DNA from: Gemmatimonadaceae bacterium
GTDB lineage: Bacteria; Gemmatimonadota; Gemmatimonadetes; Gemmatimonadales; Gemmatimonadaceae
Direction of reading: 5' to 3'
NCBI GenBank assembly: GCA_035765135.1
Contig: DASTYE010000118.1
Coordinates: forward strand, 13,477 to 77,476
Length of the DNA: 64,000 bases
The notes below the pieces were generated by a model that saw only the letters and a program-made list of their open reading frames with translations, was not told the origin of the DNA and ran no database searches. The position numbers were made by a program, and so were the translations under genes. How positions within the stretch are numbered: position 1 is the stretch's first letter; every line of letters starts with the position of its first letter. Shown here in pieces: positions 11,637 to 62,013 of the stretch.

Positions 11637-11711
11637 GACAGAATTCAGAATACAGAATTCAGATGTCAGAGGTGGGGCCTGAATTCTGAATTCTGTATTC
11701 TGAACTCTGTC
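11637..11711. repeat. tandem-repeat palindrome A (7-nt period)
   Basis: Left arm GAATTCA GAATACA GAATTCA G. 16-nt spacer. Right arm CTGAATT CTGAATT CTGTATT CTGAACT CTGTC. Outer GACAG/CTGTC closes the stem. Lies between the lpd stop and the lipB start. Confidence 0.85.
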
Positions 11712-11734
11712 CTCTCTGCCGTTCCCAACGGAAA

Positions 11735-13138
11735 TCATACGTGGATGACGCGCCCCAGCGAGTCGAGTGCCGCCTCCGCCACTGCCTCGGAGAGCGTGGG
11801 GTGGGCGTGCACCGCCAGATCGATCTCCTCGACCGTGTACTCGTTCTCGCGCGCCACCGCCAATTCGTGGATGAGCTCGGTGGCGTGCGGGCCGATGATG
11901 TGCGCACCCAGAATCTCACCGTACTTGGCGTCGCGGATGATCTTCACGAAACCATCGGTCTCGCCGCTGGTGCGGGCGCGCCCGTTGGCTGAGAAGGGGA
12001 ATTTCCCCACCTTGTACTCGAGCTTCTTGTCCTTGCACTGCTGCTCGGTGAGGCCGATCGACGCTACCTCCGGATGGCAGTACGTGGCGTTCGGGATGTT
12101 CCCGTAGTTCACCGGATGCGCGTGCTTGCCCGCCAGCTGCTCGGCGAGGGTAATGCCCTCGCGCGAGCCCTTGTGCGCGAGCATTGGCGGGCCGGCGACA
12201 TCACCGATGGCGAAGATGGTCTTCGCGCTCGTGCGAAACTGCTCGTCGATCTTGATGAACCCCCGCTCGTTGAGCTGGACTCCCGCTTCCTTGAGGCCGA
12301 TGTCCTCGACGACCGGCGCGCGGCCGGCGGCGACGAGCACGACGTCGACCTTGAGGTCGGTCTTCGCGCCGCCCGACTCGACCGACATCGACACCGAGTC
12401 CTTGGCCACCTTCACGTTCCCGATCTTGGCGCCGGCGATCACGTTGATGCCGCGCTTCTTGAACGCGCGCCCCAACGTCGCCGACACTTCGGCGTCCTCC
12501 AGCGGGAGGATGGTCGGCAGCACCTCGAGGAGCGTCACCTCGGTGCCGAAGGCGTTGAAGACATCGGCCAGCTCGCACCCGACGGCACCTGCGCCGATCA
12601 CCGCCATCGACTTCGGCGCCTTCTCGAGCAGCAACGCGTCGTCCGACGAGATCACCGTCTTCTTGTTGAGCTCGAGGCCGATCTGCGGCAGTCCCTTCAC
12701 GCGTGACCCGGTCGCGATCACGACCGCTTTCTTCGCGTCGTGCTTTTCCTCCTTGCCCTCGGCCGTCTTGAGGACGACGGAGCTCCCGCCGCCGAGGCGC
12801 GCGGTTCCCTTCGTCCACGTGATCTTGTTTTTCTTGAAGAGGAACTCGACGCCCTTCACGTTCTGATCGCTCACGGCGCGCGAGCGCTTCATCGCCACGC
12901 CGTAGTCGAACGATACCTCGCCCACGGTGACGCCAAACTCCTTCGCGTGGCGAACGTGATTGGCGAGCGCCGCCGATTCGAGCATCGCTTTCGCGGGAAT
13001 GCACCCGATCACGACGCAGGTGCCGCCGAGCTTTTCCTTCTCGAACACGGCGACACTGAGCCCGAGCTGGGCGCATCGGATGGCGCCCACGTACCCCGCG
13101 GGCCCACCGCCGATGAAGATTACGTCGAACGAAGCCAT
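11735..13138 (-). CDS. lpdA: dihydrolipoyl dehydrogenase (E3)
   Basis: FDVIFIGGGPAGY FAD motif, redox-active GGTCVVIGCIPAK, NAD motif AVIGAGAVGCE and C-terminal HAHPTLSE. Confidence 0.9.
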   Translation of the reverse strand: MASFDVIFIGGGPAGYVGAIRCAQLGLSVAVFEKEKLGGTCVVIGCIPAKAMLESAALANHVRHAKEFGVTVGEVSFDYGVAMKRSRAVSDQNVKGVEFLFKKNKITWTKGTARLGGGSSVVLKTAEGKEEKHDAKKAVVIATGSRVKGLPQIGLELNKKTVISSDDALLLEKAPKSMAVIGAGAVGCELADVFNAFGTEVTLLEVLPTILPLEDAEVSATLGRAFKKRGINVIAGAKIGNVKVAKDSVSMSVESGGAKTDLKVDVVLVAAGRAPVVEDIGLKEAGVQLNERGFIKIDEQFRTSAKTIFAIGDVAGPPMLAHKGSREGITLAEQLAGKHAHPVNYGNIPNATYCHPEVASIGLTEQQCKDKKLEYKVGKFPFSANGRARTSGETDGFVKIIRDAKYGEILGAHIIGPHATELIHELAVARENEYTVEEIDLAVHAHPTLSEAVAEAALDSLGRVIHV

Positions 13139-13163
13139 GGGTTGGTCTCTGAAAGCGAAGTCA

Positions 13164-13254
13164 GAACGAGGAACGAGGACAAAGGACCGAGGAATTCATT
13201 TCGAGGAGAGCTCGTTCAATCGAATTCCTCGGTCCTTCGTCCTCGTTCTTCGTT
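13164..13254. repeat. tandem-repeat palindrome B (7-nt period)
   Basis: Left arm GAACGAG GAACGAG GACAAAG GACCGAG GAATTC. 24-nt spacer. Right arm GAATTC CTCGGTC CTTCGTC CTCGTTC TTCGTT. The arms are near-perfect complements. Lies between the E2 stop and the lpd start. Confidence 0.9.
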
Positions 13255-13258
13255 GGGG

Positions 13259-14629
13259 TTAGTAAACCAGCATCAGCGGATTCTCGAGCATCCTCCGCAG
13301 CGTCTGGAGGAAGCGCGCGCCGGTGGCGCCGTCGATCACGCGGTGGTCGCAGCTCATCGTGACGCGCATGCGCTGGCGGGTGACGAGCTCACCGTTGATA
13401 TCAACCGGCTTCCGTTCCACCGCACCGATCGCGAGGATCCCCGCTTCCGGCGGGTTGATGATCGCGGTGAAATGCTCGATGCCGAACATCCCGAGGTTCG
13501 ACACGGAGAAGGTGGCGCCCATGTACTCTTCCGGCTTGAGACGCCGCTCGCGGGCACGCTTGGCGAGCTCCCGTGCCTCACGAGAGATCTCGCTCATCCG
13601 CTTGCGATCGGCGTCGAATACCACCGGAGTGATGAGGCCGTCTTCCACGGCCACCGCCATGCCCAGGTGAACGCGGTTGAATTGCCGAATCCGGTCGCCG
13701 AGCCAGTGCGCGTTGACTTCAGGGTGCAGCGAGAGCGCCGTGGCGACCGCCTTCATCACGATGTCGTTCACCGACACCTTGAACTCGTCGCCCATCTCGG
13801 TCATCGCGGTTCGCATCTCGACCACGCGCTCCATGTCGAGCTCGCTGGTGAGATAGAACGTCGGAACCGGTCCGATCGACTCGGCGAGCCGCCGCGCGAT
13901 CGTCTTGCGCATCTGCGTGAGCGGAATATCGGCGAAGTCGCCCTCGCGGGCGGGTGCCGGCGCGGCTGCTGCTGCCGCTCGCGGCTGCGCTGCGGCGCCC
14001 GCCGCCGCGGCTTCGATATCTCGCTTGACGATGCGCCCGCCCGGCCCCGACCCACGGACGCCGTCGAGGTTGAGACCACGCTCGTGCGCGAGCCGGCGTG
14101 CGAGCGGGGAGCTCCGCATCCGCCCCTCGCCGTTTCCACCCTCACGAGCCTGCTCCGTCGGCGGCTCGGGGCTCGGGGGAGCCGCCGCCTTCGGAGCCGC
14201 GCTTCCTACTCGATAGGCGGGCACCTTCTGCTGAGGTGGCGTCGAGGCTTCGCCCTGCGCCTGCTCCGGCGCGCGGGGCACCGGGGACGCGCCCGTGGTT
14301 TCCCCTGTCTTGGCGACGACTTCCTCCGCCGGCTTGGCCTCCTTTGCGGGCGGTGCACCGCCTCCGCCGACGAGCGCGTCGATGTTCTCGTCAGGCGCGG
14401 CGATCACCGCGACGAGCTGGCCGATCGGTGCTGTCTCGCCTTCCCCGAGCAGGCGCTTGCGCAGCACGCCCTCACCGCGGGCGACGAGCTCCATCACGGC
14501 CTTGTCCGTCTCCACCTCGGCGAGCGTCTCACCCGAGGAGATCTTGTCGCCTTCGTTCTTCAGCCATTTGACGAGGCGTCCCTCCTCCATCGTTGGAGAG
14601 AGCGCTTCCATCACGACCTTGGTTGCCAT
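13259..14629 (-). CDS. pdhC: dihydrolipoamide acetyltransferase (E2) of the pyruvate dehydrogenase complex
   Basis: Lipoyl domain ETDKAVMEL, Ala/Pro linkers, E3-binding domain SPLARRLAHERGLNLDGVRGSGPGGRIV and catalytic SCDHRVIDGA. Confidence 0.85.
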   Translation of the reverse strand: MATKVVMEALSPTMEEGRLVKWLKNEGDKISSGETLAEVETDKAVMELVARGEGVLRKRLLGEGETAPIGQLVAVIAAPDENIDALVGGGGAPPAKEAKPAEEVVAKTGETTGASPVPRAPEQAQGEASTPPQQKVPAYRVGSAAPKAAAPPSPEPPTEQAREGGNGEGRMRSSPLARRLAHERGLNLDGVRGSGPGGRIVKRDIEAAAAGAAAQPRAAAAAAPAPAREGDFADIPLTQMRKTIARRLAESIGPVPTFYLTSELDMERVVEMRTAMTEMGDEFKVSVNDIVMKAVATALSLHPEVNAHWLGDRIRQFNRVHLGMAVAVEDGLITPVVFDADRKRMSEISREARELAKRARERRLKPEEYMGATFSVSNLGMFGIEHFTAIINPPEAGILAIGAVERKPVDINGELVTRQRMRVTMSCDHRVIDGATGARFLQTLRRMLENPLMLVY

Positions 14630-14646
14630 CGCCCGTTAGGTAGAGT

Positions 14647-14738
14647 GAATGAGGAACGAGGACGAAGGACCGAGGAATCTGATCGGCAGGATGGCCACCC
14701 GATGGAATTCCTCGGTCCTCAATGCTCGTTCCGCGTTC
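14647..14738. repeat. tandem-repeat palindrome C (7-nt period, paralogue of B)
   Basis: Left arm GAATGAG GAACGAG GACGAAG GACCGAG GAAT. Right arm GAATTC CTCGGTC CTCAATG CTCGTTC CGCGTTC. Shares GAGGAACGAGGAC(A/G)AAGGACCGAGGAAT and GAATTCCTCGGTCCT with B. Lies between the pdhB stop and the E2 start. Confidence 0.85.
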
Positions 14739-14745
14739 GTGAAAA

Positions 14746-15732
14746 TCACTGTTCCAGGTAGAGAACCTTTTTCGCCGCCGCCACCGTCTTCTTCGCGTCG
14801 GGCTTGGCCGCGCGCTCGAGGTTCTTGGCGTACGGCATTGGCACCTCCTCCTGATGCACGCGGAGGACCGGCGCGTCGAGATCGTCAAAGCACTCACGCT
14901 GTATGAAGTCGGCGACATGCGCTCCGACGCCCGCGACCGCCCATCCTTCCTCGAGGACCACGGCACGATTGGTCTTCACCACCGAGGTCGCGATCGCTTC
15001 CACATCCATTGGACGGATCGTACGCAGGTCCACGATTTCCGCGGAAATGTTCTCCTTCGCCAGCTGCTCGGCCGCCTGCTGGGCGACGAGGACCATCTTC
15101 CCGTAGGCGATCAACGAGACGTCCGATCCCTCGCGCTTCACCTCGGCCTTCCCGATGGGAACGATCACTTCCTCGTTCTCCGGAACCTCACCTTTCGTGT
15201 TGTACAGCATCTCGCCTTCGAGCACGATCACCGGATTGTCATCGCGTACCGCGCTCTTCAGCAGGCCCTTGGCGTCGTACGGAGTGCCAGGCGCCACGAC
15301 CTTGAGCCCCGGGATGTGCGAGAGCCATGACTCCCACGCCTGCGAATGCTGCGCCGAGAGCTGCAGTGCCGCCCCGTTCGGTCCGCGGAACACCATCGCC
15401 ATCGGGTACTGCCCGCCGGACATGTAGAGCATCTTCGCCGCCGAATTTATGACCTGGTCCAGGGCGAGCAGTGCGAAGTTCCACGTCATGAACTCGATGA
15501 TCGGCCGCAGCCCCACCATGGCCGCGCCCACACCGACGCCCGCGAATCCGAGCTCGGTGATCGGCGTGTCCACGATGCGCATCTCGCCGAACTCCTGGAG
15601 CATTCCCTTCGAGACCTTGTACGCGCCCTGGTAGACGCCGACCTCCTCGCCCATGAGGAAGACACGGTCATCGCGCTGCATCTCCTCGCGGAGAGCCTGG
15701 TTCAAAGCGTCGCGGTAAGTGATGACTGGCAT
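14746..15732 (-). CDS. pdhB: pyruvate dehydrogenase E1 beta subunit
   Basis: MPVITYRDALNQALREEMQRDDRVFLMGEEVGVYQGAYKVSKGMLQEFG is typical of heterotetrameric E1 beta. Sits adjacent to E1 alpha and E2. Confidence 0.85.
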   Translation of the reverse strand: MPVITYRDALNQALREEMQRDDRVFLMGEEVGVYQGAYKVSKGMLQEFGEMRIVDTPITELGFAGVGVGAAMVGLRPIIEFMTWNFALLALDQVINSAAKMLYMSGGQYPMAMVFRGPNGAALQLSAQHSQAWESWLSHIPGLKVVAPGTPYDAKGLLKSAVRDDNPVIVLEGEMLYNTKGEVPENEEVIVPIGKAEVKREGSDVSLIAYGKMVLVAQQAAEQLAKENISAEIVDLRTIRPMDVEAIATSVVKTNRAVVLEEGWAVAGVGAHVADFIQRECFDDLDAPVLRVHQEEVPMPYAKNLERAAKPDAKKTVAAAKKVLYLEQ

Positions 15733-15741
15733 CGTCGTCCC

Positions 15742-16776
15742 TCAGGACACGGTATCGACGAGAACGTCCTCGTACAGCGCTTCGAGCGGTGGCTCGGGGC
15801 TCGCGTCGGCGAAGTCCCAGGCGTCCTGCACTACCGCCTTGATCTCCTCGTCCAGCTTCGACATGTCGCCGTCGGTCCACCCATCCTCCTTCTCCATCGT
15901 GGTGCGGAGCACCACGATCGGGTCGCGCTTCATGTGCTCCTCGAGCTCCTCCTTCGTGCGGTACGTACCGCTCACCGCGTCGGACATCGAGTGGCCCATG
16001 AAGCGATAGGTCCGCACCTCGAGGAGGCTGGGGATCGATTCGCTCCGCGCACGTTGCAGCGCCCGCATCGTCGCCGCGCGCACCGCCACCACGTCCTGCC
16101 CGTCCACGACCTCACTCGGCATGTCGTACGAGCACGCACGCTCCGCGATGTCGTTGATCGCCGACGCGCGCTCGAGCGCCGTCCCCATTCCATAGCGGTT
16201 GTTCTCGATCAGGTAGATCACCGGGAGCTTCCAGAGCGCGGCCATGTTCAGCGCTTCGTGAAACGCGCCGTTGTTGACGGCCGCCTCCCCGAAGAAGCAC
16301 ACGCAAACCTGATCGCCCCCCCGATACTTGATCGCGAAGCCGACACCGGTCGCGATGGGAAGGTGCCCGCCGACGATTCCGTGACCGCCGAGGAAGTTCA
16401 CGTTGCGATCGAAGAGATGCATCGAGCCGCCCTTGCCTTTCGAGCAACCGTCGACGCGACCAAAGAGCTCCGCCATGACTGAGCGCGCGGAGATCCCACG
16501 GGCGAGCGCCTGCCCGTGCTCGCGATAGCTCGTGATCACGTAGTCGTCGTCGCGCAACGTCGAGATCGCGCCGACGCCGACACCCTCCTGCCCGATGTAC
16601 AAGTGGCAGAACCCGCCGATCTTCCCGATCGCGTACGCCTCGGCGCACCGCTCCTCGAAGCGGCGAATCAGGAGCATTTCGCGGAGCAGGTCGCGACGCA
16701 GCGCGGCATCACCGCGCGCGGCGGCATCGATGGAGCCCGCGGCTCCGTTGTGATCGACGGTCTTCTTCTGTGCCAT
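15742..16776 (-). CDS. pdhA: pyruvate dehydrogenase E1 alpha subunit (TPP-dependent)
   Basis: GFCHLYIGQEGVGVG, the TPP-binding region GDQVCVCFFGEAAVNNGAFHEALNMAALWKLPVIYLIENNRYGMGT, and YRFMGHSMSD. The ORF is open to 16860, and the ATG at 16776 (MAQKKT) is preferred. Confidence 0.85.
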   Translation of the reverse strand: MAQKKTVDHNGAAGSIDAAARGDAALRRDLLREMLLIRRFEERCAEAYAIGKIGGFCHLYIGQEGVGVGAISTLRDDDYVITSYREHGQALARGISARSVMAELFGRVDGCSKGKGGSMHLFDRNVNFLGGHGIVGGHLPIATGVGFAIKYRGGDQVCVCFFGEAAVNNGAFHEALNMAALWKLPVIYLIENNRYGMGTALERASAINDIAERACSYDMPSEVVDGQDVVAVRAATMRALQRARSESIPSLLEVRTYRFMGHSMSDAVSGTYRTKEELEEHMKRDPIVVLRTTMEKEDGWTDGDMSKLDEEIKAVVQDAWDFADASPEPPLEALYEDVLVDTVS

Positions 16777-16856
16777 GTCGGTGGTGGAAGGATTCGCTGA
16801 TCCGGCGTCGCCTCCACCGCGAGCGGTGGGGCGCCGGCGCGAACGGCTGACGTCTC

Positions 16857-17774
16857 TCATGGGTTCACCAGGTTCGCGGCCTGAACCTGCTCCCAGGCGT
16901 GGTAGCTGGACCGGACGAGGGGCCCGGACTCGACGTGCTTGAATCCCATCGCGATGCCTTCTTCGCGAAGGTAGCGGAACTCGTCAGGCGTCACGTATCG
17001 ATCGAGCGGGAGGTGATCGGCCGACGGGCGCAGGTACTGGCCAAGAGTGAGGATGTCCACCTCCACCTCGCGCAGCTCGCGCATGGTGACGACAACCTCC
17101 TCGATGGTCTCGCCCATCCCGAGGATGATACCGGTTTTCGTCGGAATGTCGGGCGCGTACGACTTGGCGAAACGGAAGATCTTCATCACGCGCTCGTACC
17201 GCCCGCCCGGACGGCATCGCTTGTAGAGCCGCGGCACCGTCTCGGTGTTGTGGTTGTAGATCTCGGGACGCGCGTCGAGCACGAGGCTGATACTGTCTTC
17301 GTTCCCCTGGAAGTCGGGAACGAGGACCTCGACGGAGCAACCCGGGACGCGGTCGTGAATCTGCCGAATCGTCTCGGCGAAGATATACGCGCCAAAATCC
17401 GGCAGGTCATCTCGATCGACCGACGTGATGACCGCATGGCGGAGCTGCATCTCCGCGATCGCCTGGGCGACGCGTGACGGCTCCTCGATGTCGTATTTCG
17501 GCGGGCGGCCGTGCGCGACCGCGCAGTAGGCGCAGTTCCGCGTGCAGACGTCGCCGAGGATCATGAAAGTGGCGGTGCCGTGCTCCCAGCATTCGCCGAC
17601 GTTGGGGCAGTGGGCTTCCTCGCACACGGTGTGGAGGTCGAGGTCTCGCATCAGGTGCTTGAGGCGCCCGTAATTGGGCCCGCCGGGCGCGCGCACCTTG
17701 AGCCAGGAGGGTTTTCGCTCGGGGAGCGGGTCGGCCCGGCGCCGGCCTAGGATCTGGTAGAGGGTATCCGCCAA
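16857..17774 (-). CDS. lipA: lipoyl synthase (radical SAM)
   Basis: CEEAHCPNVGEC auxiliary cluster motif and the radical-SAM motif CTRNCAYCAV. The ORF is open to 17963, but that stretch runs into repeat D. The TTG at 17774 gives a LipA-like N-terminus (ADTLYQILGRR...RKPSWLKV). The start is uncertain. Confidence 0.8.
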   Translation of the reverse strand: MADTLYQILGRRRADPLPERKPSWLKVRAPGGPNYGRLKHLMRDLDLHTVCEEAHCPNVGECWEHGTATFMILGDVCTRNCAYCAVAHGRPPKYDIEEPSRVAQAIAEMQLRHAVITSVDRDDLPDFGAYIFAETIRQIHDRVPGCSVEVLVPDFQGNEDSISLVLDARPEIYNHNTETVPRLYKRCRPGGRYERVMKIFRFAKSYAPDIPTKTGIILGMGETIEEVVVTMRELREVEVDILTLGQYLRPSADHLPLDRYVTPDEFRYLREEGIAMGFKHVESGPLVRSSYHAWEQVQAANLVNP

Positions 17775-17945
17775 GAGTCGTCCCGGGGTCGCAGATGGTC
17801 GTCGTGCGGTCGATCGCGGGTCCTCGCGGCGAGCGCATTTTGCGTTCTCAGCCCGCGGTTCGGGGTAAGCTATCCTGTTGTGGCTCGCGTTGGTAGGACG
17901 TGGTAACCTTGTTGGCGTTACTTCGAAGGTTAGTCTCTGCGGCAA

Positions 17946-18053
17946 GGGGGTCGAGGGTGTCAAGGGTGTCGAGGGTGTCGAGGTGAATCGCTTTCACCTC
18001 GATCGCCTCGACACCCTTAATCCCTCGACACCCTTAATCCCTCGACACCCTTG
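17946..18053. repeat. tandem-repeat palindrome D (9-nt left arm, 17-nt right arm)
   Basis: Left arm GGGGTCGA GGGTGTCAA GGGTGTCGA GGGTGTCGA GGTGA. 8-nt loop. Right arm TCACC TCGATCGCC TCGACACCC TTAATCCC TCGACACCC TTAATCCC TCGACACCC. Overlaps the 3' end of the upstream oxidase gene. Confidence 0.85.
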
Positions 18054-19140
18054 GGCTCAGGGCCCACACACTCACGTCCAGAGACGCCGCGCCACGCGTG
18101 ATCAGCTCCGCGATCACCACTCCTGTAAGCGGCGCCAGCAGGATTCCGTTCCGCGAGTGGCCACAGGCGTAGAACAGCCCGGGGTGGTCGGGGTCCTCGC
18201 CAACGATCGGAAGGAGGTCCGGCGTAACCGGCCTCAGGCCAGACCATTGCGAGAGGACGCGATGCGATCCGAGCGAGGGTGAGATCTCGGCGGCGCATTG
18301 GCGGAGCTGTAGTACGGCGGCCTCCGTCGTCCCCGGATCGAATCCCACTCGCTCCATCGTGCTCCCGACGACAAGGCGGTCGTTTTGCGGTGCGATGTAG
18401 CCCCGTGGTCCCATCACGACATGGCGAAGGGGCCCCGGCTCGATCGCGAGCATCTGGCCGCGAAAAGGTGTGACGGGGAGGGGGCGCGGCAGGCCGGCGA
18501 TGCTGCTCGCCCATGCGCCTGCCGCGATGACCACGCTGCGCGCCTCCAGCTGTGTGCCGTCGGCAAGATCGAGCCGGATCGGCCGCGACGCGGGATGCAC
18601 TCGGACGACGTGTCCATCGATGCGCGGAGACACCCGGCGATCCCGCACCAAGTCGAGCTCGACGGCGCTCAGCAGCTCGCGAACGTCCACCATTCCGTCG
18701 CGCGAGTGAAGCAGTGCTCCGGCGGTGGGGGACAAAGTTGGCTCGAGGTCATGAACGGCCTCGTTCTCGAGCCACGGCGAATCGGGGCCAGCCAGCGGCC
18801 GCAGAGTCGCCGCATCCGCATCGGTGAAAGCGATCTCCAACAGCCCGCGATGCAGCGCGACGCGCCGTCCGGTTCGCTCGGCCAGGCCATCCAGGTAATC
18901 GGGATACAGCTCCCTGGCGGCGATCCCTAGCGCGCGCGCCGGGTCCGGCGTAACTCCAACCGACGGTGCGAGGAGCCCCGCGGCCGCAGGTGAGGCCGCC
19001 CCATCCTCCCTTGCTGACACGACCATGACACGTGCATTCTCGCGGGCGAGCGCCGTCGCACAACAGAGGCCCACCAGACCGGCGCCCACGATGATCACAT
19101 CTGGCTGAAACCGGGCAGCGGAGTCGCGCGTAATACTCAC
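18034..19140 (-). CDS. FAD-dependent oxidoreductase (glycine oxidase ThiO / D-amino-acid oxidase family)
   Basis: DVIIVGAGLVGLCCATALARENARVMVV dinucleotide fold and C-terminal GHSRNGILLAP, typical of the DAO family. The last about 6 codons and the stop lie inside repeat D. Confidence 0.6.
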   Translation of the reverse strand: MSITRDSAARFQPDVIIVGAGLVGLCCATALARENARVMVVSAREDGAASPAAAGLLAPSVGVTPDPARALGIAARELYPDYLDGLAERTGRRVALHRGLLEIAFTDADAATLRPLAGPDSPWLENEAVHDLEPTLSPTAGALLHSRDGMVDVRELLSAVELDLVRDRRVSPRIDGHVVRVHPASRPIRLDLADGTQLEARSVVIAAGAWASSIAGLPRPLPVTPFRGQMLAIEPGPLRHVVMGPRGYIAPQNDRLVVGSTMERVGFDPGTTEAAVLQLRQCAAEISPSLGSHRVLSQWSGLRPVTPDLLPIVGEDPDHPGLFYACGHSRNGILLAPLTGVVIAELITRGAASLDVSVWALSPRVSRD

Positions 19141-19164
19141 AGCAACCGCCAGGAGCTCAACCCG

Positions 19165-19389
19165 ATGCTTCGCACCATATTCACAATCGGCGCGCTGGCC
19201 GTGCTGGGGCTTTTTCTCCTCAGCTTCGTGTTCGGCATTCTCAAGGGCCTGATCGGCCTCGCGCTCTTCCTTCTCGGCCTCGCGATTCGCATCGCGATCG
19301 TCGGGCTGATCGTATACATCGTCATTCGCATCGTGAGCCCTGAAACGGCTCGTCGGTTACGCGAGCGGTGGAGCGGTCCGACGGTCTAA
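19165..19389 (+). CDS. small integral membrane protein
   Basis: 74 aa, almost entirely hydrophobic (two or three predicted TM helices), with a basic C-terminus. Confidence 0.45.
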   Translation: MLRTIFTIGALAVLGLFLLSFVFGILKGLIGLALFLLGLAIRIAIVGLIVYIVIRIVSPETARRLRERWSGPTV

Positions 19390-19415
19390 GCCGGGCGAAA
19401 AAGACTGAAGGAACG

Positions 19416-19452
19416 AGACGGGCGGAAGATCCACTGGATCTTCCGCCCGTCT
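19416..19452 (+). terminator. perfect 17-bp hairpin downstream of the small membrane protein gene
   Basis: AGACGGGCGGAAGATCC - ACT - GGATCTTCCGCCCGTCT. No clear U-tract follows. Confidence 0.45.
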
Positions 19453-19470
19453 TGCGTGCGTTCTATCTCA

Positions 19471-19992
19471 ATGAGACATGCACCGCACCTCTCACCAATG
19501 ATGGCAATGGATCAAGCGATCGCCCACGTCATGGGCTTGATGGACATCGTAGACAACCTGTACGCGCGAGCGCTCCACGGCCTCGATCCCGATGAGCTGA
19601 CACGTGCGCCATCGGATGACTCGAATCCGATGATCTGGATGGCGGGCCACCTGGCGCAAACCAGAGTGCGTCTGGGTCGCCTGCTCGGAGTGGATCGCGA
19701 AGTGCCGTGGCCCGCGCTGTTCCAGCGTGGCAGCCCGCCTCCCGACAGCGAGAAATACCCCGCGCTGTCGGACATCCGAGGCGTGTGGGAGGATGCCGGC
19801 AAGGCATTGCGCGCGCGGCTTCGCGCGATGACTGAGGAGGAGCTACACTCCCACCTCCAGCTCAAGATCCCCTCGACCGATGGGACGCTCCGTGGCGCCA
19901 TTGTCTTCGCACTGTTCCACGAGGGCTACCATGTGGGGCAGATGGGATACGTGCGGCGCACGTTAGGCAGGGAGGGGATAGCGCAGCTGTAG
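19471..19992 (+). CDS. DinB-family (four-helix bundle, metal-dependent) protein
   Basis: WMAGHLAQTRVRL and LFHEGYHVGQMGYVRR match the His-containing DinB superfamily helices. The ORF is open to 19456, with an ATG at 19471. Confidence 0.55.
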   Translation: MRHAPHLSPMMAMDQAIAHVMGLMDIVDNLYARALHGLDPDELTRAPSDDSNPMIWMAGHLAQTRVRLGRLLGVDREVPWPALFQRGSPPPDSEKYPALSDIRGVWEDAGKALRARLRAMTEEELHSHLQLKIPSTDGTLRGAIVFALFHEGYHVGQMGYVRRTLGREGIAQL

Positions 19993-20163
19993 CTGGGGCT
20001 TTGGCCCAGCTACAGCGGGCCAGGGGCCAAGGGCCAGGGGGTGTGGAAAGGCGCGGCGCCGCTTCGCGGCAGCCGCGCTCATCTGATGAGCAACCGGCCG
20101 CGCAACGCGCCGCCGGTTGCCTTTCAACCCCCTTGGCCCTTGGCCCCTGGCCCTTGGCCCAGC
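19986..20163. repeat. compound palindrome E (12-bp hairpin plus 7-nt-period arms around a structured spacer)
   Basis: GCTGTAGCTGGG/CCCAGCTACAGC hairpin (19986-20016). Left arm GGGCCAG GGGCCAA GGGCCAG GGGG (20017-20041). Spacer of about 86 nt. Right arm CCCC CTTGGCC CTTGGCC CCTGGCC CTTGGCC (20128-20160). Lies between convergent genes. Confidence 0.85.
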
Positions 20164-21098
20164 CTTTCTACCACCGCCCACACCAGCAGCGGCACCATGA
20201 TCTCGTGGTGCCCGGTGATCTCGTATCCCGCGCCGCCTTCCAGGGTCGGACGCTGCACGACGTTCACCCGCGGCCGATAGTGACGAAGCATGTCGAAGTC
20301 GCACGTCGTGAAATGCGTCGGCCGTCCGTCGCCGAGATTGCGGGCGACTGTCAGCGCCTTGAGGAAAACCTCGGGCATGATCACGGCGCTGCCGAGGTTG
20401 AGCACCACTCCACCGTCGTGCAGTGTCGGCATCGCCGCCGCCAATCGGCGAAAGTCGCGATGACTGGTGTCGCCGATCGCCGCGCCATCGGTGGCAGGAT
20501 GCTGGTGGATGATCTCCGCGCCGATCGCCGCATGGACGGTCACGGGAATCCCGAGCTCGTGTGCGCCCAGCAGGAGCGAAAGCTCGGGGTGCACGAGATC
20601 GGAGCGCGAGGCGAGTGCGCGGGCGAGTGCTTCGCCCATCCCCCAGCTCGCGGCGCGCCCTCGCGTGAACGCCTCGTTCATCTCACGCCCCGTCTCCTCC
20701 GCCATCCCGAAGGTCCCATCGCGCAAGCCTGACGCGACGTCCTCCGATGTCCCGCCCCAACGCGCAACCTCGTAATCGTGAATCGCGGCCGAGCCGTTGA
20801 GCGCGAGATGCGTTATGACGCGCTGACGCAAGAGCTCCAGCAGGACCGGCGCGATTCCCGTCTTCACGACGTGACCGCCGGCCATGGCGATCACCGCACG
20901 GCGACGTGCGGCCCGGGCTATCGCGTCCACCACGCTCTTGAAATCACGAGCGGCCAGCACATCGGGGAGTGAACGCAAGAACGCGCCGAATGAGCGGTCG
21001 GCACCTGGCGGCCCGGCAAACTCTTCGGCGCGTACCTTGTTCGGACGTTGCGCGATGGGGACGGTGCGGACCCGCGAGAGGTCCGCCTCGCGCGTCAC
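20124..21098 (-). CDS. deoxyhypusine-synthase-like family protein (function unknown)
   Basis: The architecture resembles the DHS fold: AMAGGHVVKTGIAPVLLELLRQRVITHLALNGSAAIHDYE versus DHS ...SSGIRE..L....VDVLVTTAGGVEED, then later GIPVTV...GAEIIH and VVLNLGSAVIMPE. The GTG start overlaps the upstream stop (GTGA). The C-terminal tail GQGPGAKGQGG is encoded by repeat E. Confidence 0.4.
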   Translation of the reverse strand: MTREADLSRVRTVPIAQRPNKVRAEEFAGPPGADRSFGAFLRSLPDVLAARDFKSVVDAIARAARRRAVIAMAGGHVVKTGIAPVLLELLRQRVITHLALNGSAAIHDYEVARWGGTSEDVASGLRDGTFGMAEETGREMNEAFTRGRAASWGMGEALARALASRSDLVHPELSLLLGAHELGIPVTVHAAIGAEIIHQHPATDGAAIGDTSHRDFRRLAAAMPTLHDGGVVLNLGSAVIMPEVFLKALTVARNLGDGRPTHFTTCDFDMLRHYRPRVNVVQRPTLEGGAGYEITGHHEIMVPLLVWAVVERLGQGPGAKGQGG

Positions 21099-21844
21099 TG
21101 CGTCTCGCTGGCTGTCCCCGGAGTGTACGATTTCAGATAGAGGCTGAGGGTGCCGAACGACAGGCTGGATTTGAGCTGGAGCATCATACGCCGGTCATCA
21201 TCCGACAGCCAGATCTCGGCGCGGCCGTTCTCGGAAAAGATGCCTTTCGACTTGATGATCGGTTGAATGACGATCGCGTCGAAGCGCCCGGCGGGCACCT
21301 TCACCGATTCCTTCCGAAGCACGCGCACACGAACAGGATTGCGGTCGGGCTTGAAGTAACGAGGAAAGTCGTACGTCTGCCCGACCGTGAGCGGCACTGT
21401 ACGGATGAAGTAGAGAAACGATCCATCGTCGAGCGGGTCGCGAACGCTTTCACGCTCCTCGCTGTCATTCTCCGTGTACAGGACGCGGTCGGGATAAATC
21501 TCGAAGCGACGCTCCCGGTCGCGCCGTCCCTCCTGAAGATCCTGGACATGCCGCAGCGACGAGAACGTCTCCGTGTCGATCCAGCTCTCGAGGCGATCGT
21601 TCACCTTGTAGAAGAACGTTCCTCCCTTCACGGTGAACGAGGTATGCCACGCCTGGCGTCCGCGAATCTCCTCGACGCCCACCACTTCCATGCGGCCGCT
21701 GCCCACCTTGAGCATGCCGAACTTCACATCGTACTCGAGCCGCTCTCCGACCGAGAACGGCACCGGCACCTGCGGTGTCAGCTCGGCCGGAGCGGTGAGT
21801 GCGACGACGATCGCGAGGACATCAGCCTGCAGAAAGGTCTTCAT
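21095..21844 (-). CDS. DUF3108-like secreted protein
   Basis: Signal peptide MKTFLQADVLAIVVALTAPA. GERLEYDVKFGMLKVGSGRMEV is typical of DUF3108 beta-barrel-like proteins. ATGA overlap with the upstream GT2 gene. Confidence 0.5.
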   Translation of the reverse strand: MKTFLQADVLAIVVALTAPAELTPQVPVPFSVGERLEYDVKFGMLKVGSGRMEVVGVEEIRGRQAWHTSFTVKGGTFFYKVNDRLESWIDTETFSSLRHVQDLQEGRRDRERRFEIYPDRVLYTENDSEERESVRDPLDDGSFLYFIRTVPLTVGQTYDFPRYFKPDRNPVRVRVLRKESVKVPAGRFDAIVIQPIIKSKGIFSENGRAEIWLSDDDRRMMLQLKSSLSFGTLSLYLKSYTPGTASETQ

Positions 21845-22593
21845 GTCGTTGTGGGTGCGGCTCGGCGAGCGCGATTGGCCCGTCCGAAACGGTAAAGATC
21901 CAGTGCACCGGCAAGAGGCCGAACACGTGTATCCCGGGGACGCAGGTCGTATCGCGGCTCCAGCGACACGACCTCGATTCGCCGTGCGAATCGCGCCGCC
22001 TTCGCCAGAAGCTCTACGTTCGCGGCCCAGCCATCCGCTCTTAGCAGTGCTCCCTCTCCGGCCTCCTTGAGCAGATCACGGACCACGGCAATACGGATGA
22101 GACGGTACGTGCCGAGAGGATCGGTCACTCCTGATACACGTACAAAGGGACGAATGAGCCATCGCCCGAGGCGACGGAGCCGCCTGACGGGAACCGGCGT
22201 GGTAGCCGCCGACGACGCGTACTCGCCGATCACGAGATCGGCGCCCCCTTCGTGACGCTTGATCAGCTCCGGAAGATGTTCCGGCTGATCGGTGAAATCG
22301 GCCTGCATGAGAATCGCCGCGTCCCGACGCGGGTAACGGGTACGCTGCGAAACCGCACGCAACAGCGCTTCCACCGATGCCGCATACCCGCGCCGCTTGT
22401 CGTGGCGCAGGATCGTCAAGGGCAACACCTCGCGGTACGGCGCGAGGGTCTCGGCCGTGGCATCGGTGCTTCCGTCGTCCAGCACGAGGATCTCGTACTC
22501 GCGCGGATAGTTCTCGAACACCTTGCGAATGCGCCAGAGCAGCAACCCAATCGTCGGCGATTCGTCATAGGTGGGAATGCAGACGTAGAGCAT
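21841..22593 (-). CDS. family-2 glycosyltransferase (polyprenol-phosphate sugar transferase-like)
   Basis: MLYVCIPTYDESPTIG...ILVLDDGSTDAT...QADFTDQPE contain the GT-A DxD-type motifs. The ORF is open to 22656, with an ATG at 22593. Confidence 0.75.
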   Translation of the reverse strand: MLYVCIPTYDESPTIGLLLWRIRKVFENYPREYEILVLDDGSTDATAETLAPYREVLPLTILRHDKRRGYAASVEALLRAVSQRTRYPRRDAAILMQADFTDQPEHLPELIKRHEGGADLVIGEYASSAATTPVPVRRLRRLGRWLIRPFVRVSGVTDPLGTYRLIRIAVVRDLLKEAGEGALLRADGWAANVELLAKAARFARRIEVVSLEPRYDLRPRDTRVRPLAGALDLYRFGRANRARRAAPTTT

Positions 22594-26099: not shown

Positions 26100-26102
26100 C
26101 GG

Positions 26103-47906: not shown

Positions 47907-47916
47907 TGGCGGAGCC

Positions 47917-48028
47917 GTCAGCGGTCAGCAAATGCGGAACGCTGAATGCGGATTGCGTGAGAGAGCCTCCGCTGGGCAATCTCATCGGCAATCCGGATTC
48001 CGCATTCCGCATTTGCTGACCTCCTGAC
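47917..48028. repeat. tandem-repeat palindrome F (7-nt period)
   Basis: Left arm GTCAGCG GTCAGCA AATGCGG AACGCTG AATGCGG ATTGC. 31-nt spacer. Right arm GCAATCC GGATTCC GCATTCC GCATTTG CTGACCT CCTGACG. Lies between the nurA-like stop (47906) and the herA-like ATG (48055). Confidence 0.85.
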
Positions 48029-48054
48029 GTCTCTGCCCTTCTAACCGAGATCAC

Positions 48055-58455: not shown

Positions 58456-58488
58456 CGAGCCCCGTCGAAAGGCGGGGCTCGTTCTTTC
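58456..58488. terminator. 9-bp GC hairpin abutting the stop of the CaCA-like gene
   Basis: CGAGCCCCG - 8-nt loop - CGGGGCTCG. TTCTTTC follows on the plus strand. On the minus strand the hairpin sits 5 nt after the TGA of the transporter gene. Confidence 0.5.
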
Positions 58489-59695: not shown

Positions 59696-59916
59696 ATGGG
59701 CGCCATCCAGATAGGGGTGATCCCGGCGGTGAAAAGTTGCGTCAAGTTAGACGCGCACCGCGAGCGACTCAAGCTGGACGGGTGCGCGTGGCTGCGCGCC
59801 ATACGTTCGCGAACCAATACTCGCCCCATCGCTTCGTGACTCAACGACGAAACTCGCGCCCGCGCGCCGCCGCGCGCCGCGCGAAAGCCCCACCCGCGCC
59901 CCTCTCCGACCGCCGC

Positions 59917-60555
59917 GTGGACACGGACTCGCTCGAGCTCGCCGAGTTCGATGCCGGTCTCGACCTCGATCCGGGGCCGGCGCACAACGCCGAATTCGAA
60001 GGTCTCGTCCGACGCATCCTCGAGCTGATCGGCGAAGAGCCGTCGCGCGAGGGGCTGCTTCGCACACCGACGCGCGTCGCGAACGCGCTCAGCTGGCTCA
60101 CGCGCGGCTATGCTCTCGATGTGGAGGAGGTCGTCGGCGACGCCGTGTTCGCCGAGGCGCACGAGAGCATGGTGATGGTCCGCGACATCGAGCTCTACTC
60201 GCTCTGCGAGCACCATCTGCTCCCGTTCTTCGGCAAGGCTCACATCGCCTACATTCCCGACGGACACATCGTCGGACTCTCGAAGCTGCCGCGCATCGTC
60301 GATGTCTTCGCGCGCCGGCTCCAGGTGCAGGAGCGTCTTACCGAGCAGATCGCACAGGCCATTCAGGACGTGCTCGCGCCGAGGGGCGTCGGTGTCGTGA
60401 TCGAGGCGTACCACCTGTGCATGATGATGCGGGGTGTCGAGAAGCAGAACTCGAAGACCATCACCAGCGCGCTTCGTGGCTCGTTCCGCTCCGACGCGCG
60501 AACGCGAGACGAGTTTCTCCAGCTCGCGCACGGCAGCTCGACACCCTTGCGGTGA
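59917..60555 (+). CDS. folE: GTP cyclohydrolase I
   Basis: [57 protein letters not shown] and MMMRGV. The ORF is open to 59737. The GTG at 59917 fits the usual length. Confidence 0.85.
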
Positions 60556-61268
60556 CAGGGACGCTCGACGGACAAACGGCCGTGGTTACCGGCGGCTCGC
60601 GCGGCATCGGACGCGCGACTGCCGCGCGGCTGGCCGCGGCTGGCGCGCGGGTGGCGTTGCTCGCGCGAGGGCAGTCGCAGCTCGAGGAGGCCGCACTGGC
60701 CATTGGGAAGGATGCGGTCGCGATTTCCTGTGACGTGACGCGACGCGCGTCGATCACCCGTGCGGCCGCCCGGATCGTCGACGAGTGGGGGGGCGCGCCG
60801 GATCTCCTCATCAACGCCGCCGGCGCCTTCGATCTCGCCCGGGTGGATGAGACGACGCCCGCACAGTTTTCGACGATGATCGAGGCAAATCTGGTTGCGC
60901 CGTTCGTCGTGACACGCACCTTCCTCCCCGAGATGCGTTCTCGCGGGCGGGGGCACGTCGTGTCGGTCGGCTCGGCCGCCGATCGCGAGATTTATCCGGG
61001 AAACGGAGCGTACTCCGCGAGCAAGTTCGGTTTGCGCGCACTGCACGAGGTGCTCCGCGTGGAGCTGCGGGGGAGTGGGGTACGGTCCACGCTGGTGTCC
61101 CCAGGCCCAACCGATACCGCGCTCTGGGAGGCGGTGCGGACCGACGGTGGCGACACCGTCTCGCGCGACCGCATGCTCGACGCCGATGCCGTTGCCGACG
61201 CGATCCTCTTCGCGGTGACGCGCCCCGCCGACGTGAACATCGATGAGCTTCGCCTCTCTCCTGCCTGA
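60552..61268 (+). CDS. SDR-family oxidoreductase
   Basis: [16 protein letters not shown] (TGxxxGxG), NAAG, and the catalytic [11 protein letters not shown] (YxxxK). The GTG start overlaps the folE stop (GTGA). Confidence 0.8.
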
Positions 61269-61277
61269 CGAATAGCC

Positions 61278-61922
61278 ATGTTCATCGAGCTGGTCGAGTC
61301 GCTCCGCTGCCCCCGCCCGCACGACTTCACCTGGCTGGTGGCCTCCACGCTCGAGATGGCGGGGCGCGACATTCGGCGCGGGCTGCTTGGCTGTCCCGCG
61401 TGCAGCGCGCGCTACCCGATTCGGGATGGAATCGTCGATTTTCGGACGCGGGATGGCACGACACCGATTCCCGATTCCCCGCCGCTTGCCAGTGCGCCCA
61501 GGGACCCCGATCTCGCGACGCGTGCGGCCGCGCTCCTCGACCTAACGAGTCCCGGCGGGTTCGTCCTGCTCGCCGGCTCGTGGAGCCTGGCCGCGCCAGC
61601 GCTGCGCGACCTCATCGAGGGGGTTGAGCTCCTGGTTCTGAATCCGACGATCGCGCTCGCCAGCGGCGACGGTATCTCGCTCGCGCGTACCGATGGCTCG
61701 ATCCCGATTCGACCGGCCGCGGCGCGAGGGATTGCGCTCGATGGGGGTCACGCCGCGCACGTGGACGGCGCGGCCACCGCCCTTCGTCAGTTCGGCCGTC
61801 TGGTGGCGCCCCTCAGGGCGACGCTGCCGTCGGGTCTCGAGGAGCTCGCTCGCGACAAGTCCGACTGGGTCGCGACCAAGCGGGTGGCGACATCGGAAGC
61901 CGTGCCGCTGAGGAGAGGCTGA
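61278..61922 (+). CDS. Trm112-like zinc-ribbon N-terminus fused to an unknown domain
   Basis: LRCPRPH...LLGCPACSARYPIRDGIVDFR matches the Trm112/DUF343 pattern (C-P..C...Y.I.DGI). The remainder is not recognised. Confidence 0.35.
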   Translation: MFIELVESLRCPRPHDFTWLVASTLEMAGRDIRRGLLGCPACSARYPIRDGIVDFRTRDGTTPIPDSPPLASAPRDPDLATRAAALLDLTSPGGFVLLAGSWSLAAPALRDLIEGVELLVLNPTIALASGDGISLARTDGSIPIRPAAARGIALDGGHAAHVDGAATALRQFGRLVAPLRATLPSGLEELARDKSDWVATKRVATSEAVPLRRG

Positions 61923-62013
61923 GGTAGTCGAGGTCGTCAAGGTCGTCGAGGTGCTCGAAGTGAAGCTTGTTCACCTCGATACCCTGGACGACCTCGGCGA
62001 CCTCGACGACCTC
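61921..62013. repeat. tandem-repeat palindrome G (9-nt period, homologue of D)
   Basis: Left arm GAGGTAGTC GAGGTCGTC AAGGTCGTC GAGGTG. 18-nt spacer. Right arm CACCTCGAT ACCCTGGAC GACCTCGGC GACCTCGAC GACCTC. Shares the GTCGAGG..GTCAAGG..GTCGAGGTG...TTCACCTCGAT core with D. Lies between convergent genes. Confidence 0.85.

Follow-up and report, generated by a model that had tools for sequence, protein, structure and literature searches.

The window analysed here is the whole 64,000 nt stretch at positions 13,477-77,476 of the forward strand of contig DASTYE010000118.1, from a Gemmatimonadaceae bacterium (GCA_035765135.1). It holds seven long hairpins, A to G, three of which (A, B and C) lie inside an E1/E2/E3/lipB operon. 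Each element consists of two short tandem arrays in inverted orientation, mostly of 7-nt units, sometimes of 8 or 9. An earlier reading of the sequence alone (the sequence-only reading) had reported the seven palindromes, and all are present where it placed them. It had also put them in gene gaps, some clipping gene 3' ends. This is borne out: A, B, C and F lie 12, 4, 7 and 1 nt past a stop codon, while D and E overlap gene ends.

The window was compared with 141 Gemmatimonadota-like loci (1.44 Mb), all centred on one operon and including some near-duplicates, for example L041 and L045. The closest relatives of the window genome are only about 85% identical in E2.

In hairpin A (11626-11722), a 9-nt loop separates two 44-nt arms built from CAGAATT/CAGAATA. 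The arms are 89% complementary and both have period 7 (TRF). It is flanked by the E3/lpd stop codon at 11735, on the minus strand, and by the lipB start at 11607. Its MFE is -59.9 and -68.6 kcal/mol (z -11 and -12). L001 has no hairpin in the orthologous gap, which measures 31 nt. Hairpin B (13165-13254, period 7, z about -9.5) is built from GAACGAG/GACAAAG/GACCGAG/GAATTC. It lies between E2 and E3, stopping 26 nt short of the E3 start codon; in L081 and L090 the E2|E3 gap also holds a hairpin with units of this family. Hairpin C (14647-14738) lies past the E1-beta stop codon and ahead of the E2 start codon. It is a degenerate copy of the B family with 78% complementary arms (z about -6.9).

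Hairpin D (17944-18053, z about -9.4) lies upstream of lipA and runs into the final codons of a DAO-like gene (stop codon 18034). Its left arm is 4.3 copies of AGGGTGTCG, with period 9. The right arm had been read as 9-mers, but is actually three perfect 17-nt copies of CCTCGACACCCTTAATC.

Hairpin E had been described as a single locus at 19986-20163. The heptamer stem stands, but the locus is a composite. The stem (20017-20160, z -10 and -11) has GGGCCAG/GGGCCAA arms at 20017-20048 and 20122-20160, both with period 7, and these enclose three small hairpins (20049-20121). A separate 12-bp stem in the MFE structure, E0, occupies 19986-20016. The final codons and TAG stop codon of a DinB-like gene make up its 5' arm, and an inverted copy of these makes up its 3' arm; comparison with L001 confirms where this gene ends. 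E lies between convergent genes and overlaps about the last 12 codons of gene 20124-21098. The right arm encodes the C-terminal GQGPGAKGQG of that product, where L001 has ESNQPASRHG. In L001 the two flanking genes stand 8 nt apart, with no E hairpin.

Hairpin F (47908-48037, z -10.7 and -11.4) has outer units GTCAGCG/GTCAGCA and inner units AATGCGG/AACGCTG; the arms are 91% complementary, and the right arm has period 7 (TRF). It begins directly after a plus-strand gene (46908-47906, GC3 frame check), upstream of gene 48055/48148-50025. Its unit family GGAATGC is also found in hairpins of L001 and L081 at the E1b|E2 and E2|E3 gaps. The stems of A and F had earlier been given ends that were too short. 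Hairpin G (61921-62015, z -7.5 and -8.5), with units GAGGTCGTC/GAGGTAGTC and period 9 in both arms, occupies the 94-nt gap between convergent stop codons at 61922 and 62017.

Among the checks that the sequence-only reading had proposed were comparison with shuffled sequence and folding on both strands. Stems were scored by Watson-Crick-only alignment, with 40 dinucleotide shuffles of the window as the null. A to G are the seven longest inverted repeats of the window, and make up seven of its eight stems that score at least 17.5; the eighth, at 18, is outside the set. Shuffled windows average 0.33 such stems, with a maximum score of 20. A, B, D, E, F and G score 24-34, above that maximum, and C scores 17.5, below it. 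When folded as RNA on both strands against shuffles, the hairpins have z-scores from -6.8 to -12.3, and no shuffle folds as well.

TRF finds period-7 or period-9 arrays in the arms at all seven loci. Against shuffled arms, periodicity is strong in A, E and G (both arms P<0.0005), in D (left arm P<0.0005) and in F (right arm P<0.0005, left arm P=0.03). It is moderate in B (left arm P=0.006) and weak in C, where on its own it is not significant (P=0.1-0.2). The stem scores, folding and TRF arrays together establish that the combination of dyad symmetry and periodicity is real. The claims that the elements are not CRISPR, lack coding capacity and carry no obvious target-site duplication are also supported.

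Metagenome assemblers can create or collapse repeats, so chance similarity or an assembly artefact has to be considered. This is effectively refuted, by the six stems above the shuffle maximum and by the recurrence of the architecture, also on megabase-scale contigs and in orthologous gaps, in dozens of assemblies made independently by different projects. The architecture is common in Gemmatimonadota, and recurs across the 141 related loci.

The seven loci had been thought to share an architecture rather than a sequence. This did not hold up. Over 25-28 nt, B matches C at 96-100% identity, and D, G and a copy at L001:20701-20794 have 72% column identity. B and C are paralogs, as are D and G. 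The proteins flanking the L001 copy are unrelated, and the site is not orthologous.

Such families bring to mind REPINs, extragenic REP doublets that form hairpins (Bertels and Rainey 2011, PMC3116915). The likeness is broad: both are extragenic, about 100 nt long and made of two inverted arms and a spacer, with several families per genome, presence/absence variation and frequent placement past stop codons. REPs are also the classic stabilisers of mRNA 3' ends, as in malE-malF. The elements here might then be REPIN- or MITE-like non-autonomous mobile elements in several genome-specific families, copied by a transposase elsewhere (e.g. RAYT or the IS200-IS605-type Y1). In favour are the B/C and D/G families within 64 kb, the D/G copy in L001, F-type units at other gaps in L001 and L081, and the absence of A and E from L001.

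However, the arm of a REPIN is itself a short palindrome, conserved, present in hundreds of copies and associated with a RAYT transposase. The arms of A to G are non-palindromic, purine-rich tandem arrays that fold alone at only about -3 to -13 kcal/mol (F -20), whereas the complete elements reach -54 to -122. A to G show neither a consistent GTAG or CGTC tag at their ends nor any target-site duplication; the ends are ragged, and copies differ in unit number. The highest family similarity is between adjacent gaps 1.4 kb apart, which fits conversion equally well, and nhmmer found no additional D/G copies in 1.78 Mb of related loci. Mobility is an unlikely explanation. The L001 copy of the D/G family could nevertheless reflect true transposition rather than local conversion.

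Relatives were also compared for arm pairing and unit number, another of the proposed checks. In some 50 genomes, the gaps of the operon that holds A, B and C measure anything between 2 and about 280 nt, and E1b|E2 is shorter than 20 nt in 30 of 46; periodic hairpins are optional at any given gap. At E2|E3 the units are GAACGAG/GACCGAG in the window, GAACGAG/GAGTGAG in L081, GAAGGAG in L090 and GAATGCG in L001. While the units change, the arms within an element stay mostly 0.77-1.0 complementary (0.62 in one element), and unit variants are mirrored in both arms. Positional orthologs of B have identities of only 0.33 and 0.64, versus 0.79 for the paralogs B and C in the window and 0.76 for their counterparts B' and C' in L001. 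Neighbouring hairpins within a genome are more alike than positional orthologs, which amounts to homogenisation.

The placement of periodic hairpins was counted over the 141 loci with a crude in-house gene caller, on which all genic and intergenic figures here depend. There are 78 outside genes and 47 inside, with 87% of bases genic, an enrichment of about 11-fold. Under a stricter criterion on the first 61 loci, 23 are outside genes and 2 inside. Co-directional, convergent and divergent gaps hold 46, 18 and 6, where gap bases predict 39.8, 10.9 and 19.3 (chi-square P=6e-4); the divergent gaps are depleted. Overall, the hairpins are nearly confined to non-coding DNA, directly past stop codons, in co-directional and convergent gaps. 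Within co-directional gaps, the median distance is 4 nt from the stop codon to the hairpin and 18 nt from the hairpin to the next start codon; the hairpin is nearer the stop in 36 cases and nearer the start in 9. In 62 of 75 hairpins the purine-rich arm precedes the other (62 versus 13).

Periods are 7 in 46 hairpins of the related loci, 9 in 10 and 8 in 5. Intergenic tandem arrays likewise peak at period 7 (122, with 33 at period 14), and genic arrays at multiples of 3. Of the arrays with periods 7-10 and 14 in co-directional gaps, 88 of 146 are inside hairpins.

This placement raises the question of whether these are dedicated cis-acting RNA elements, kept by selection on the folded transcript, with the periodicity a by-product. 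Candidate roles are RNase III processing sites, exonuclease blocks that fix the E1/E2/E3/LipB stoichiometry, and U-tract-independent bidirectional terminators. The stems are very stable, sit tightly after stop codons and are rare in divergent gaps. Their arm pairing survives sequence change, and at E2|E3 a hairpin of one unit family persists down to 68% E2 identity.

As had been noted from the sequence, none of the seven loci is followed by a T-tract. This is not distinctive, because ordinary non-periodic gene-end hairpins in these genomes lack T-tracts too. Canonical terminators are not enriched in the window genome either, and U-tract-free hairpins may therefore be the local termination signal.

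Against selection on RNA, no hairpin is conserved at any single gap, as the short E1b|E2 gaps illustrate. The sense transcript has no folding advantage: among 25 co-directional cases, 8 fold better in sense and 17 in antisense. The ratio of co-directional to convergent gaps is 46:18 for periodic hairpins versus 53:58 for ordinary ones (Fisher P=0.0025), so the periodic ones are relatively commoner in operons, an odd site for a terminator. Unpartnered, one-sided arrays are also found in the same kinds of gap. We regard selected RNA elements as a possible but rather unlikely explanation.

The sequence-only reading knew of no described element class with this design. Two turn out to share both design and gene position. 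In Xanthomonas, GGGAATC heptamers occur in tandem, in 2 to about 26 copies, with 70-75 convergent inverted array pairs per genome that can form a stem-loop (Rehm et al. 2015, PMC4692102). About 90% of these repeats are intergenic, lying 28 nt from the upstream ORF versus 160 nt from the downstream one; they are under-represented between divergent ORFs, and their length and sequence vary among close species (PMC4692102). The paired heptamers, the closeness to the upstream ORF, the scarcity in divergent gaps and the G-rich array coming first all resemble the hairpins here. However, essentially a single consensus unit is used throughout a Xanthomonas genome; it has a G3 tract and has been interpreted as forming G-quadruplexes (PMC4692102). 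The Gemmatimonadota hairpins have their own unit per locus or family, dozens across the phylum, most of which cannot form a G-quadruplex, and they use 8- and 9-nt registers too.

In cyanobacteria, 7-bp short tandemly repeated repetitive sequences (STRRs) form a hairpin between the cistrons of an operon, as between hupS and hupL, or just past a gene's 3' end, with proposed roles in transcript stability, translational coupling or termination (PMC2670836). Hairpins A, B and C, inside their operon, are placed like the hupS-hupL one, although in another phylum. STRRs are defined as a few abundant unit types (STRR1-3). The GGGGAYT arrays of Nostoc are mostly unpaired, whereas at least 60% of the Gemmatimonadota arrays are hairpin arms.

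G-quadruplex repeats have been proposed for the GGGNATC units of Xanthomonas and Nostoc, and the sequence-only reading had suggested arrays bound by a periodic DNA- or RNA-binding protein. Short, regularly spaced motifs would suit either, and certain units turn up in more than one genome, and even in different phyla (GGGAATC in L003, GGGGATT in L013, CAGAAKT in the window and in Pyrinomonadaceae). The purine-first polarity also suggests some polar constraint. However, a binding protein would have to cope with dozens of unrelated heptamers and with periods of 7, 8, 9 and 10 side by side, and its motifs would be buried in the duplex of the paired hairpin. A G3 tract is missing from most units, those of A, B, C, F and G among them, which therefore cannot form a G-quadruplex. 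Both variants are very improbable.

The best reading is that A to G are the Gemmatimonadota version of the heptamer-repeat hairpins of cyanobacteria and Xanthomonas. With moderate confidence, we take them to be palindromic microsatellite elements that grow by slippage, have their arms kept paired by template switching or conversion, and are tolerated only at gene 3' ends. Growth by slippage, as first suggested from the sequence, fits because orthologs differ in unit number and composition, D has expanded its 17-mer in one arm, and period 7 dominates the intergenic arrays. In work on long simple-sequence repeats of prokaryotes (Mrazek et al. 2007, cited by PMC4692102 and PMC4679880), period 7 was over-represented in non-coding DNA, which was put down to slippage of the polymerase. 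The arrays here peak at the same period; the arrays in that work, as cited, are direct ones, and hairpin pairing and polarity are not its subject.

On the slippage reading, arrays would gain and lose units by slipped-strand mispairing, with 7 nt as the favoured period in these genomes. Arm complementarity would be kept mainly at the DNA level rather than by the sense RNA, because A to G fold equally well on both strands and the sense transcript shows no advantage. Intrastrand template switching (quasi-palindrome correction) and conversion of short tracts are the likely means, the latter also copying elements between nearby gaps. Purifying selection would purge elements from coding sequence, promoter regions and ribosome-binding sites, so that they pile up between a stop codon and the next ribosome-binding site. 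The purine-first polarity counts against this reading, as a neutral slippage model does not predict it.

When transcribed, the elements would fold into stems of 25-45 bp, and at gene 3' ends they would probably act as transcript-end stem-loops. A stem may hold the upstream stop codon and the downstream start codon near each other, and hence be tolerated inside operons. It would most likely hinder 3'-to-5' exonucleases and make RNA polymerase pause or terminate weakly, independently of a U-tract, modulating expression rather than being required for it. High-GC bacteria also have 'I-shaped' intrinsic terminators, GC-containing hairpins directly past a gene with no T-run and stems of 5-15 bp. The T-run-free position directly downstream of a gene is the same, as it is for the ordinary hairpins here. 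The stems of the A to G type differ in being 25-45 bp long, internally periodic and relatively more often inside operons than the ordinary gene-end hairpins of these genomes.

The seven hairpins, named A (11626-11722), B (13165-13254), C (14647-14738), D (17944-18053), E (20017-20160), F (47908-48037) and G (61921-62015), are the seven longest inverted repeats of the whole window. The hairpin finding is real and statistically solid. Reading the sequence at all seven loci bears out their earlier description: two inverted arms, 25-55 nt long, surround a spacer, and the arms consist of short head-to-tail units. Tandem Repeats Finder (TRF) assigns a period of 9 to the arrays of D and G and of 7 to those of the other five loci.

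Stems were detected with our own vectorised alignment, which counts Watson-Crick pairs only. It was used instead of a BLAST minus-strand self-search and an RNAfold-window detector, which missed most loci. Eight stems in the window score at least 17.5, and seven of these are A to G, six of them at 24-34 and C at 17.5. Forty dinucleotide shuffles of the window yield a mean of 0.33 stems at or above 17.5, with a maximum of 20. Folded as RNA on both strands, the elements reach -54 to -154 kcal/mol (z -6.8 to -12.3), and no shuffle equals this. That A to G are the product of chance or artefact is almost inconceivable.

Periodicity was scored per arm against shuffled arms. For A, E and G, both arms are periodic at P<0.0005. 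The same holds for the left arm of D and the right arm of F, while the left arm of F reaches P=0.03 and the left arm of B P=0.006. The right arm of D consists of three perfect 17-mers opposite the 9-mers, a recent expansion of one arm. The periodicity of C is not significant by itself, and C qualifies only weakly as a heptamer array.

Gene ends were determined with a gene caller of our own, based on codon bias, together with checks of GC3. The placement in gene gaps stands: every element overlaps a stop codon or begins 0-12 nt past one. A to D are part of a minus-strand operon, which by Pfam reads DAO-like oxidase, hairpin D, lipA, E1-alpha, E1-beta, hairpin C, E2, hairpin B, E3, hairpin A, lipB. 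G takes up precisely the whole gap between two convergent stop codons. E also lies between convergent genes, and its right arm (20124-20160) encodes the last residues of a 324-aa protein (gene 20124-21098) which is 86% identical to its ortholog in L001, the closest genome compared. The tail reads GQGPGAKGQG in the window in place of ESNQPASRHG in L001, at the same protein length. The heptamer array of E has overprinted the 3' end of this gene, with protein length kept. Such hairpins affect operon annotation in Gemmatimonadota MAGs, where repeats overprint some gene 3' ends.

Two further hairpins lie near E. At 19986-20016, directly beside it, the 5' arm is made of the last codons and TAG stop of a DinB-like gene and the 3' arm is their inverted copy, which looks like a fold-back duplication of the gene end. 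At 19416-19452, between a small plus-strand ORF (19165-19389) and the DinB-like gene, there is a perfect 18-bp non-periodic hairpin. L001 has kept it (about 5243-5290), and three of its base pairs are preserved through changes on both sides. Of the window's 19 GAATTC sites, 7 fall inside A, B and C (11641-14710), which together span some 300 nt.

No run of T's follows any of A to G, as had been noted. A canonical intrinsic (Rho-independent) terminator, a GC-rich hairpin with a directly adjoining U-tract, is thereby rejected, and none of the terminator-like sites found in a scan of 9000-22000 coincides with A to E. A search of the window against Rfam 15 at the gathering threshold gave no match. 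In E-value mode there were sub-threshold matches, nearly all to eukaryotic miRNA-precursor models, which here act as generic long hairpins.

Other identities were discarded on anatomy. The elements are indeed not CRISPR: the units abut without spacers and the two arrays are inverted. MITEs have terminal inverted repeats around a non-palindromic core, whereas here the whole element is the palindrome. Visual inspection found no target-site duplication flanking A to G, nor at A and E when compared with the empty sites in L001. Retrons and riboswitches were rejected on the same grounds of anatomy. The order DAO-lipA-E1a-E1b-E2-E3-lipB is kept across the phylum, so the hairpin-flanked genes are not integron cassettes, and attC sites are excluded.

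REPINs are hairpins of about 100 nt in which two REPs face each other in inverted orientation, and RAYT transposases mobilise them (PMC3116915). A single-copy RAYT gene would be unlikely to fall in a stretch of 64 kb. That the elements are similarly moved by a transposase is unlikely. Two REPIN features are lacking. REP arms are themselves palindromic, but the arms here fold alone at about -3 to -13 kcal/mol (F at -20), against -54 to -122 for whole elements. There is also no consistent terminal GTAG/CGTC tag at the ends of A to G, which read ACGGCA, AACGAG, GAATGAG, AAGGGG, GGGCCAG, GGCGGAG and GAGGTAG; GTAG is present in G alone, within its first unit.

The survey drew on genomes and metagenomes and covered 160 loci that surround E2 homologs, of which 141 (1.44 Mb) are Gemmatimonadota-like. 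The window itself is Gemmatimonadaceae DNA. The best match to its E2, in a MAG of this family, is 85% identical, and nothing closer than 85-86% turned up in the genome and metagenome scans. Hairpins with tandem arms are common in the 141 loci and use many different units, for example GGGGATT, GGCTATT, TAGGGGA, GCGAATT, CGGTTAT and GTGAACG, the 8-mers TGGACCGG and AGGACGAG, and the 9-mer CACAGAGGA. Paired-array hairpins are abundant in a poorly studied soil phylum, and the finding is wider than the sequence-only reading supposed: it is phylum-wide, and its rules are common across phyla.

Periodic hairpins, those with at least one arm that is a tandem array, number 78 outside and 47 inside genes in the 141 loci, where 87% of bases are genic. 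This is a roughly 11-fold intergenic enrichment, in counts that come from crude gene calls, from loci all around one operon and in part from near-duplicate contigs. Under a stricter criterion, the first 61 loci have 23 outside genes and 2 inside. Co-directional, convergent and divergent gaps hold 46, 18 and 6, with 39.8, 10.9 and 19.3 expected from gap bases (P=6e-4). The ratio of co-directional to convergent is 46:18 for periodic versus 53:58 for ordinary, non-periodic hairpins (P=0.0025). Within co-directional gaps, the median distance is 4 nt from the stop codon to the hairpin and 18 nt from the hairpin to the start codon that follows; 36 hairpins are nearer the stop and 9 nearer the start.

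The period is 7 in 46 hairpins, 9 in 10 and 8 in 5. Period 7 is also the commonest among intergenic tandem arrays as a whole (122 arrays, with a further 33 of period 14), and genic ones peak at multiples of three. Co-directional gaps hold 146 arrays of period 7-10 and 14, and hairpins contain 88 of these. A T-tract after the stem is absent in these genomes for periodic and ordinary hairpins alike: the 10 nt past periodic stems contain a mean of 2.7 T, and 9% have at least five. Terminator prediction is affected where genomes have no such U-tracts.

The elements have a strong intrinsic polarity. Of the 75 periodic intergenic hairpins in the 141 Gemmatimonadota-like loci, 62 have a purine- or G-rich 5' arm (P=8e-9), as do 90 of 120 ordinary intergenic ones and all seven loci in the window (for C by reading the sequence). 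Stems inside genes have no such bias (176:168), nor do unpaired arrays on the sense strand (24 vs 30). As the element is palindromic, both strands have this polarity. In co-directional gaps, the sense strand folds no better than the antisense (sense better in 8, antisense in 17), and there is no sign of selection specific to the mRNA strand. That the hairpins are dedicated RNA elements, kept by selection on the transcript, is unlikely.

Heptamer repeats of the STRR type have been known from bacterial intergenic DNA since about 1990. The present hairpins offer a useful comparative handle on the old question of where such repeats come from and what they do. They are not a categorically new system, and the suggestion that no described element class has this design does not hold, because there is precedent in Xanthomonas and in cyanobacteria.

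Xanthomonas genomes each carry 70-75 convergent pairs of GGGAATC heptamer arrays which could form a stem-loop (Rehm et al. 2015, PMC4692102). About 90% of these arrays are intergenic, with 28 nt to the ORF upstream and 160 nt to the one downstream. Few occur between divergent ORFs, their length differs among species, and no function was found (PMC4692102). In filamentous cyanobacteria, hairpins of 7-bp STRRs lie between hupS and hupL and also past gene 3' ends, with proposed roles in transcript stability, translational coupling or termination (PMC2670836).

The present elements resemble both. The arms here are tandem arrays of short units in at least two to three copies. The arrays converge, with the G- or purine-rich one first on each strand, and can form a stem-loop. 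They are intergenic, nearer to the upstream stop than to the downstream start, and rare in divergent gaps. Unit number and sequence in the same gap (E2-E3) differ among related genomes. What is different is the lack of one dominant, G4-capable G-tract unit such as GGGAATC or GGGGAYT. The 64 kb alone contain at least five unrelated units, of which only those of D and E include GGG, and the surveyed loci have dozens. The elements are thus a variant of the Xanthomonas/STRR hairpins, with which they are filed because structure and position agree even though the single G-tract unit does not, and their units are diverse and mostly unable to form G4. The paired-array form is independent of any particular unit or of G-quadruplex potential, and that the elements serve as protein-binding or G4 arrays is very improbable.

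A search of the literature on Gemmatimonas, Gemmatimonadetes and Gemmatimonadota found no description of such elements. Four heptamer hairpins, all purine-first, are present in outgroup Pyrinomonadaceae (Acidobacteriota), at L049 15319-15477, L065 21-78, L149 3654-3746 and L155 4559-4680; the L149 unit CAGAAGT resembles that of A (nhmmer E=1e-5). The remaining outgroup loci, roughly 200 kb, have no such hairpin. The positional rules are alike in several phyla: just past stop codons, away from divergent gaps, purine-rich arm first. The same rules with varied units point to a general mutational and selective process and not to a lineage-specific motif.

Hairpins are optional at any given gap. 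Operon gaps in roughly 50 genomes range from 2 to about 280 nt. In L001 the E3-lipB gap is 31 nt and without a hairpin, and 8 nt separate the two convergent genes between which E lies in the window. Where a hairpin is retained in the same gap, unit number and sequence vary while pairing is kept. After the E2 stop, the window has GAACGAG GAACGAG GACAAAG GACCGAG GAATTC, the related locus L081 has GAACGAG GAGTGAG GAACGAG GAAGT, L090 (8838-8920) has GAAGGAG repeats, and L001 has GATTGCG GAATGCG GAACGCG GAATC. In all four, unit variants are mirrored in the opposite arm. The hairpins could serve as hypervariable markers. In L090 the GAAGGAG units amount to repeated Shine-Dalgarno-like GGAGG opposite CCTCC, and the E3 start codon lies 5 nt past the stem, which leaves no room for a separate ribosome-binding site.

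Arm complementarity within elements is mostly 0.77-1.0 (0.62 in one element), while positional orthologs of B have identities of only 0.33 and 0.64. Paralogs in the same genome resemble each other more than orthologs do, at 0.79 for B and C in the window and 0.76 for their counterparts in L001. In L081 the hairpin after E2 is of the GAACGAG type and the one before E2 of the GATTGCG type, which suggests that in both of the other lineages one type has taken the place of the other.

The seven loci had been described as sharing an architecture rather than a sequence. This needs correction, since their sequences are in part related: B and C are paralogs, D and G form one family, and the F unit is found elsewhere, in hairpins of L001 and L081. 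The D/G family includes L001:20701-20794, at 72% column identity; this copy sits at a non-orthologous site and adjoins an unrelated gene. A REP is conserved in 100 or more copies per genome; within the 64-kb window, the present families have at most two members. An nhmmer search of 1.78 Mb of related loci, with one profile for each family (B/C, D/G, F, A and E), matched only positional orthologs of B (L081, L090 and, weakly, L008), copies already known from L001 and L081, and a Pyrinomonadaceae hairpin that resembles A at low complexity.

The preferred account, held with modest confidence, combines growth by slippage, arm pairing at the DNA level and confinement at gene 3' ends; we infer each of these steps. 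Slippage would grow and shrink the arrays, with 7 nt favoured. Arm complementarity would be kept mainly by template switching or short-tract conversion in the DNA, which may also homogenise neighbouring hairpins. Selection would then confine elements to the stretch from a stop codon to the next ribosome-binding site, or to between convergent stops. The RNA stem would hold stop and start codons adjacent, so that an element is tolerated in operons, and it probably slows 3' exonucleases or RNA polymerase.

A more ambitious reading joins Gemmatimonadota, Pyrinomonadaceae, Xanthomonas and cyanobacteria in one cross-phylum class of self-templating palindromic microsatellites. The near-obligatory purine-first polarity would then reflect a specific polar mechanism, and these lineages would use the hairpins as their main transcript-end signals, bidirectional and U-tract-independent. 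Options for the mechanism are fold-back synthesis by a particular polymerase, or selection against C-rich RNA exposed to Rho before the stem closes. This reading is unlikely.

Some arrays in the survey depart from the usual form. In another Gemmatimonadaceae MAG (L069 10072-10258), about 25 tandem copies of AGGCCAA/AGGTCAA fill the E3-lipB gap with no inverted partner. Another locus, L056, has arrays of the 8-mer TGGACCGG at three sites within 6 kb (1266-1303, 2076-2363 and 6724-6767). One of them is an inverted pair, in which 9 copies face 8 across a spacer of about 154 nt; it is among the few cases in a divergent gap.
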